A stretch of 64,000 nucleotides of DNA from Paraspadella gotoi (taxonomy: Eukaryota > Animalia > Chaetognatha): contig CM119270.1 of assembly GCA_051294375.1 (NCBI GenBank), forward strand, positions 2,356,388 through 2,420,387, read 5' to 3'. Below are positions 59,582-59,829 of this stretch, one piece after another. The notes beneath the pieces were generated by a model. The model worked only from the letters and a program-made list of their open reading frames with translations, ran no database searches and was not told the DNA's origin. The position numbers and the translations under genes are program-made. How positions within the stretch are numbered: position 1 is the first letter of the stretch; every line of letters starts with the position of its first letter.

Positions 59582-59829
59582 TGTGGCAGCAAGACTTAAA
59601 GCTGCCTCACTGCTGTCCGTCCTCAGCCTCGTCTCAATGGCTGAGCAGGCTAAATCATCTCATTCCATCCGTGCGTCCCGGGTTCAATCCCCGGTTCTGG
59701 CTTAAATGTGACGGTGCCGGTATAAACATGCCAGTGACAGGAGGCGGTCACTGAGGGTCCGCAGCCCCTACGCCAGTTGGTGAGATACCCCGCGCCCCGG
59801 GTATCACAGGCTATCCTCCCGTTGCCATA
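59582..59829 (+). mobile_element. Family B LTR-like element
   Basis: TGTGGCA...TGCCATA, TSD GCCC. Confidence 0.88.
59697..59776 (+). ncRNA. Twister ribozyme, P5-type permutation (family B)
   Basis: CTGGC(P5)-TTAA-ATGT(P2')-GA-CGG(T1)-TGCCGGTA(P1)-TAA-ACAT(P2)-GCC-AGTGAC..GTCACT(P3)-G-AGGG-TCCG-CAGC-CCCT(P4)-AC-GCCAG(P5'). Predicted U/A cleavage at 59723/59724. Confidence 0.88.

Follow-up and report, generated by a model that had tools for sequence, protein, structure and literature searches.

We found four families of LTR (A, B, C, and D) within the window, by which we mean the whole 64-kb stretch of DNA analysed, that carry a predicted circularly permuted (type-P5) twister ribozyme with its P1 helix reduced to a palindromic linker of 6-8 nt. 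The best reading of these four palindromic-P1 families is a strand-swapped double twister, in which the P1 palindromes of the two twisters in a full-length transcript would pair into a shared helix and speed cleavage; we give this about an even chance, and the pairing is probably not strictly required. The reading is preferred because the inner bases of the linkers are self-complementary though they could not pair in a hairpin, and because the type-P5 twisters of phages have P1 hairpins of 17-26 nt.

LTR elements in the window

The window is eukaryotic DNA rich in AT and microsatellites, and the twister-bearing units in it are 213-285 bp long with TG/TA...CA/TA ends [Table 1]. The type of element makes an animal host likely. 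The family B copy at 59582-59829 (plus strand) is a 248-bp solo LTR which holds the twister together with tRNA-type A and B boxes and has a 4-bp target duplication. TSDs of 4 bp, as in the animal Helenus and TRIMp3 families, matched in 7/10 insertions, the others being one mismatched, one truncated, and one without a printed TSD. All four families have a tRNA-like B box, each twister lying 3' of it, and A boxes were assigned by inspection, so that the boxes of Helenus are present; no full tRNA was predicted by ARAGORN at the LTR boxes.

The only complete two-LTR element in the window belongs to family A, the families B, C, and D being represented by solo LTRs only. This element is a two-LTR TRIM of the Helenus type, non-coding and 671 bp long (<1 kb, as in Helenus and TRIMp3), with a PBS and a PPT. 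The two LTR ribozymes that had been proposed to share one transcript are found here, their predicted cut sites 424 nt apart, and both twisters bear small lesions. The sole T4 run of the element (21864-21861, minus strand) sits between its two twisters and could act as a Pol III stop before the second ribozyme. Those LTRs of B, D, and A that were checked lack such a run, and C has one 5' of its A box.

The copy statistics were drawn from window copies and public contigs. None of the listed runs is recorded as RNA, and the two guessed to be RNA consist of contigs in which molecule ends do not show. In run X1, the contig depth summed over the LTRs exceeded that of a single long contig by a factor of some thousand, which suggests that the copies of these LTR families run into the thousands, although depth does not equal copy number.

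Some neighbouring features were also recorded. The family A solo LTR at 16945-17178 sits inside another repeat (16700-17400), of which an uninterrupted copy lies at ~6808-7273, and the B copy at 10333 adjoins an inverted-repeat element of 608 bp (9725-10332 / 17478-18085) at its end. A degenerate family C LTR at 23056-23221 has lost its twister core from UAA through P4. Two uninterrupted ORFs on the minus strand, 28510-31287 (925 aa) and 48658-51474 (938 aa), are paralogues whose products carry an SRCR domain at the N terminus; no homologue of the second was found among proteins 502-1598 residues long.

Table 1. Positions of the twister-bearing LTRs and their parts in the window
Feature	Position	Strand	Details
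Family B solo LTR	59582..59829	+	TG...TA ends; TSD GCCC
Family B tRNA-type Pol III promoter boxes (from sequence)	59638..59691	+	A-like TGGCTGAGCAGG 59638-59649; B GGTTCAATCCC 59681-59691
Family B type-P5 twister fold (predicted)	59697..59776	+	P5 59697-701/59772-776; P2 59706-709/59726-729; GA 59710-711
Family B twister, further helices (predicted)	59697..59776	+	T1 59712-714/59759-761; T2 59730-731/59764-765; P3 59732-738/59747-753; P4 59754-757/59766-769
Family B palindromic P1 linker	59715..59722	+	TGCCGGTA; predicted cut 59723/59724 (U^AA)
Second family B solo LTR	10333..10589	+	TSD CTAC; linker TGACGGTA at 10475-10482, palindrome broken
Family D solo LTR	55831..56064	+	TSD GAGT; linker 55948-55955, window TGTTGGCG, family majority TGTCGGCA
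Family C solo LTR	58927..59211	+	TSD GGGT; linker CGGCCG 59078-59083
Second family C LTR	41110..41383	-	Linker TGGCCG 41244-41239
Complete family A TRIM	21471..22141	-	TSD ATAG; linkers GGCGCT; 5' LTR 22141-21906; 3' LTR 21716-21471
Complete family A TRIM, interior		-	PBS-like TGGTGAGCCCGAC 21904-21892; 189-bp internal part; PPT 21729-21717
Family A solo LTR	16945..17178	-	TSD GTAT; intact twister; linker GGCGCT 17053-17048
Family A LTR	26193..26428	-	Intact twister; linker GGCGCT 26309-26304; 5' end approximate
Family A 5' LTR then PBS (truncated element)	19443..19655	+	Linker GGCACT, broken
Family A solo LTR	56299..56529	+	TSD ATGG; linker TGTGCT, broken

The twister fold

A descriptor scan returned a type-P5 twister in the family B LTR at 59697-59776, with the parts P5 (CTGGC/GCCAG), P2' (ATGT), GA, T1' (CGG), the linker, U^AA, P2 (ACAT), GC, P3, P4, and the loop GTCCGCAGCC. 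When the window was scanned with a relaxed descriptor, the A, B, C, and D copies ranked highest and no convincing fifth twister family was found. The elements of the type-P5 class are present, namely the U^AA site, the general-base G and the A, the T1 (3 bp) and T2 (2 bp) pseudoknots, and the P2, P4/L4, and closing P5 helices, P2 being shortened (3-nt strand) and mismatched in A and C. T1 co-varies between families (CCG/CGG, CCA/TGG, TCC/GGA), and T1, P2, P4, and P5 all differ in sequence between families yet stay complementary, which backs the fold. Between B and D, four pairs are changed on both sides, and 95% of cells are paired, a level matched by 6 of 500 shuffles of an alignment of three sequences only. 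In the C copy at 58927-59211, the general-base G (59073) and T2 (59090) are not as in the majority of genomic copies. This pattern of complementarity is indicative that the families A-D have a twister fold.

The part that fails to appear is P1 as a closed hairpin. If forced, the intramolecular P1 comes to +3.6 to +5.8 kcal/mol with a probability of ≤0.005 in computed folding, in agreement with the earlier claim that the linker is too short for a stable hairpin. As P1 has been reported to be dispensable, its missing hairpin marks a variant rather than an exclusion from the twister class. No match in the window passed the Rfam gathering threshold, the best score being that of twister-P1 on family D (17 bits against the 67.2 needed, E 7.5). 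Reading these motifs as P1-type was rejected, there being no GA/T1'/P2' downstream in the sequence.

Palindromic P1 linkers

The P1 linkers are GGCGCT in A, TGCCGGTA in B, CGGCCG in C, and by majority TGTCGGCA in D. All four are placed between T1' and UAA of the P5-permuted fold and are self-complementary from end to end with G-U pairs, and their sequence differs by family, just as the preliminary description had it. For family D that description was right about palindromy but took the window sequence for the norm: TGTTGGCG is atypical, and the family motif, taken from contigs of four runs, is the stronger palindrome (in X1, C makes up 94.5% of the depth at 55951 and A 98.8% at 55955, X2 being similar). 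The predicted homodimer energies are -8.3 kcal/mol in A, -10.9 in B, -10.7 in C, and -9.5 for the D majority, against -4.6 for the D window copy, and the computed Kd of the isolated duplexes is ~2e-8 to 1e-6 M. By inspection, the linker of B is fully complementary to the majority linker of D, which makes B-D cross-pairing possible; the A and C linkers cannot pair mutually.

Among the window copies that keep the linker, 8/11 are fully self-complementary and 3/11 are broken (two of family A, at 19 and 56 kb, and the second B copy at 10 kb). Across genomic copies, where a check of palindromy had been suggested, it holds in the family majorities, so that the preliminary description is not refuted by the family consensus sequences. 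A minor D variant that breaks one pair accounts for ~1% in X1 and X2 and for 21% in one X6 contig, and P1 variants in B or C were not seen among the 40 of 91 variant rows listed from public contigs. As the D twister varies by 1-5% per site everywhere along its length, constancy at the level of copies shows youth and says little on selection.

We then compared the linkers with chance. Self-complementarity with G-U in these LTRs has a background of 47/982 for 6-mers, 21/974 for 8-mers, and 123/990 for 4-mers. The inner four bases of the linkers, for which hairpin pairing is impossible, are GCGC in A, GGCC in C, and CCGG and UCGG in B/D, and A, C, and B/D are three lineages without BLAST similarity to one another. 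Counting the inner 4-mer only and taking A, C, and B/D as independent, palindromy in three lineages by chance is 0.124^3, or ~0.002. The outer and central P1 pairs are altered on both sides between A and C; the P1 changes from B to D are all one-sided, and B and D each retain all four P1 pairs across two changes. None of the loops of the linkers is a GNRA or UUCG tetraloop. On these counts the palindromic P1 is real and above chance.

Conceivably, such palindromes could be neutral remnants of a long P1 hairpin that shrank to 1-2 bp and a tetraloop, with a functional monomer and palindromy left over from the old stem. The same closing pairs (CGGCC...GGCCG, GG...CT) are seen in the P1 hairpins of phages, and symmetric loss of their apex would give palindromes of this kind; shuffles of the GC-rich linkers themselves are fully self-complementary in 11-40% each, and copy-level conservation does not demonstrate selection. 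This origin, however, requires three independent loop-less collapses, or else that they persisted neutrally for a long time as all other parts of the LTRs diverged past alignment, and it has to accommodate the four pairs kept in both B and D, for which reasons we regard it as decidedly improbable.

Type-P5 twisters in phages and metagenomes

In a first set of phage type-P5 twisters, P1 hairpins of 20-26 nt were present at 22/39 loci, and in a second set 43/111 loci (11 distinct sequences) had the same CGG/CCG T1 and P1 hairpins of 17-21 nt. No convincing short-linker P5 twister was found among 113 viral, 120 metagenome (21/64 parts scanned), 18 prokaryote-genome, and 18 further viral matches. 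Relatives sought by pattern numbered 0 in viral contigs, and 0/120 metagenome matches from the same 21/64 parts passed the P2/P4 filter. In the sequences compared, the short palindromic P1 is unusual among P5 twisters, and here it is found together with a two-copy context.

Several apparent short-linker cases were rejected. The phage loci L011, L029, and L035 turned out to be P1-type or tandem P1-type, L148 was on inspection a misparsed long hairpin, L290 has a hairpin of 12 nt with 3 bp, and L383, with a non-palindromic linker of 8 nt, P2 3/4, and P4 2/3, looks like chance. In L029:60-230 and L035:60-230, two P1-type twisters stand in direct tandem and their junction imitates a short-linker P5. 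The L310-L369 group (IMG/VR) is a compact type-P5 family with CGG/CCG T1 on ~40 phage contigs, located just 5' of ribosome-binding-like sequences, and L171, L176, L200, and L219 are copies of an internally palindromic dispersed repeat from related metagenome assemblies, a pattern match without P2/P4 pairing that is probably MITE-like.

Predicted folding of single twisters

In pseudoknot-free folding, which leaves out both pseudoknots, a rival hairpin in the B monomer buries UAA at 0.77 and the P2 probability is 0.01. With the linker withheld, P2 in B rises up to 0.81, reaching only 0.29 in the 59-kb B copy in wider context, and stays at 0.00-0.05 in A, C, and D. A hairpin hiding UAA and the T2 bases is predicted in the A, B, and D monomers at 0.59-1.00 (core context), and P2 is ~1.0 in 12/13 phage controls. 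Random or shuffled linkers misfold equally, which in B costs 4-5 kcal/mol, and the natural linkers are not more inhibitory; hence the rival hairpin was not selected as a switch. In the same way, a selected auto-inhibitory or ligation hairpin between the 3' half of P1 and the P2/GCC strand was rejected, as it is not above shuffled linkers, its register varies by family, and the D case hangs on an atypical letter. Any unpaired linker would, in this folding model, be a liability that a partner strand could remove.

These predictions bear on the stronger claim of the preliminary description, an obligate dimer, in which monomers would be essentially inactive (>100-fold slower) and only the two-copy transcript would cut. 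The same linker palindromy and contrast with phage hairpins would serve this reading too, as would the burial of UAA and the T2 bases in the predicted A, B, and D monomers; the A and C cores may be marginal given their shortened, mismatched P2, and the linker is held at both ends in this permutation, compared with a free 5' end in the mini-twister. Yet stem III belongs to the catalytic core of the hammerhead, whereas P1 of the twister can be dispensed with. Twisters without P1 cut at almost wild-type rate (PMC5408937), and the length, stability, and defects of P1 had no effect on cleavage across thousands of natural twisters (PMC11662667), a partial counterweight being the inefficient P1-less cleavage and the effects of P1 composition reported in PMC8501958. 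The inhibitory hairpin, moreover, is no stronger than chance, with a family-dependent register and its strongest case (D) resting on a letter in ~1% of the depth.

Hammerheads give the closest parallel. The marks of a double ribozyme, namely a 1-2 bp stem that bears a palindromic loop and the presence of two copies on one transcript, are all found here, and the likeness to hammerheads that the preliminary description drew is well founded: axolotl hammerheads with 1 bp and a palindromic tetraloop or with 2 bp and a tetraloop reach 6% and 22% cleavage as monomers, respectively, and far more as dimers (PMC7229834). Penelope hammerheads are slow even when dimeric (PMC6765202). As 6-22% of monomer cleavage persists even in the dimer-dependent axolotl case (PMC7229834), enhancement rather than an absolute requirement is to be expected, and we consider an obligate dimer rather unlikely.

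A proposed shared P1 helix in the two-LTR transcript

We return to the dimer-enhanced double twister. Transcription would start by Pol III from the boxes within the LTR, and an intermolecular P1 of 6-8 bp would stack between the two T1 helices. The gain would lie in withdrawing the GC-rich linker from competing misfolds and not in catalysis itself; since the partner strand would remove the misfolding linker, there would be a route to dimer enhancement without P1 taking part in the chemistry. The palindromes would pair readily in cis, and in trans their pairing would be limited by concentration. Double cleavage would yield a unit without terminal redundancy that needs ligation into a circle, as in a retrozyme cycle (PMC4918200). 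A lone, slower ribozyme, whether on such a circle or on the RNA of a solo LTR, would cut less, so that a one-ribozyme circle would stay closed and host RNAs crossing solo LTRs would be spared. Keeping the circle or sparing host transcripts may be better rationales than the quality control against solo LTRs that had been proposed, which is weak because solo-LTR RNAs, having no PBS or PPT, cannot be reverse-transcribed anyway. Dimer enhancement has points against it, namely that twisters can do without P1, that the hatchet ribozyme pairs by a palindrome and still works fully as a monomer (PMC6561176), that the folding predictions are mixed, that the P1 changes between B and D are one-sided, that the independent lineages are only three and come from one genome, that the palindrome is broken in three window copies and in the minor D variant, and that the sole complete element has damaged twisters and the T4 run.

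The palindrome could instead be a genome-dimerisation or packaging signal for a helper gypsy particle, carried on a monomer-competent ribozyme, which we hold to be improbable. A GC-rich palindrome of 6 nt at a hairpin apex mediates the dimerisation of Ty3 RNA (PMC11381356), Gypsy is thought to mobilise animal Helenus elements (PMC10886601), and a 4-nt palindrome joins hatchet ribozymes into dimers, the monomer being fully active (PMC6561176); with P1 dispensable, the position would be free for another role. A packaging signal, on the other hand, leaves aside why the palindrome takes one ribozyme position in all four families, immediately 5' of the cut, and matches double hammerheads closely in length and position, and those published Helenus LTRs that were examined do without a twister loop (PMC10886601).

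Comparison with known systems

With the type-P5 twisters of clan CL00120 (permutations in PMC5408937), the elements described here share U^AA, the general-base GA, T1, T2, P2, P3, P4/L4, P5, and compensatory changes; they differ in lacking the stable P1 hairpin of the phage examples, in the 3-nt P2 strand of A and C, and in scoring sub-threshold in Rfam. With Helenus / TRIMp3 (Kojima 2024, PMC10886601) they have in common a non-coding LTR element <1 kb, tRNA-type A and B boxes, a PBS, a PPT, a 4-bp TSD, and many solo LTRs, and what sets them apart is the twister 3' of the B box. The word 'twister' has 0 occurrences in the available text of that paper, and six L4 motifs used as queries matched no LTR in its consensus file. 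Six L4 motifs likewise revealed no twister in the passages covered of the supplementary data on Naiad elements (PMC8557442). Plant LTR retrozymes (Cervera et al. 2016, PMC4918200) likewise have a ribozyme per LTR, a 4-bp TSD, and a double cut that would release unit-length RNA, but theirs are type III hammerheads, whereas the ribozyme here is a twister fold accompanied by Pol III boxes, and its circles are hypothetical; the type III hammerhead that marks LTR retrozymes is absent from these elements. The Perere-3 twister T-variants of Schistosoma mansoni (PMC8501958) are also retroelement twisters with a weak or variable P1, though of P1-type at the 5' end of a non-LTR element, and palindromes or dimers have 0 occurrences in the available part of that work. 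No dimeric or palindromic twister, and no twister in an LTR or TRIM element, was found in the literature searched, which reached few of the subscription papers; 'twister' has 0 occurrences in the accessible text of an RNA-dimerisation review (PMC7357161) and of a 2026 retrozyme preprint (10.64898/2026.07.22.740005).

If the obligate reading were true, this would be the first natural obligately dimeric twister, in which a retroelement counts its own LTRs through a P1 strand swap and only two-LTR precursors cut, a claim we consider doubtful. The circular unit and the thousands of solo LTRs in host transcripts would then remain uncut, the family-specific palindromes would be orthogonal pairing codes, and twister and hammerhead would converge on one copy-counting trick.

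Dimer-dependent self-cleavage is already known for retroelement hammerheads. If another class of ribozyme, unrelated to them in structure, had arrived at 1-2 bp and a palindromic loop, this would make copy-sensing general in ribozyme-bearing mobile elements, and would assign a role to P1, the conserved but catalytically dispensable twister helix. It would also tie Pol III-driven TRIMs to a retrozyme cycle beyond plants and provide a small RNA switch that responds to two copies. The dimer-active type I hammerheads that newt and axolotl retrozymes carry (HHR_Amex1/2, PMC7229834) and the minimal hammerheads of Penelope-like elements (PMC6765202) belong to another ribozyme class than the twister. 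In contrast to them, the shrunken helix is non-essential in twisters, and the ribozyme here resides in an LTR element that has a PBS and a PPT instead of in a tandem repeat or a pseudo-LTR.
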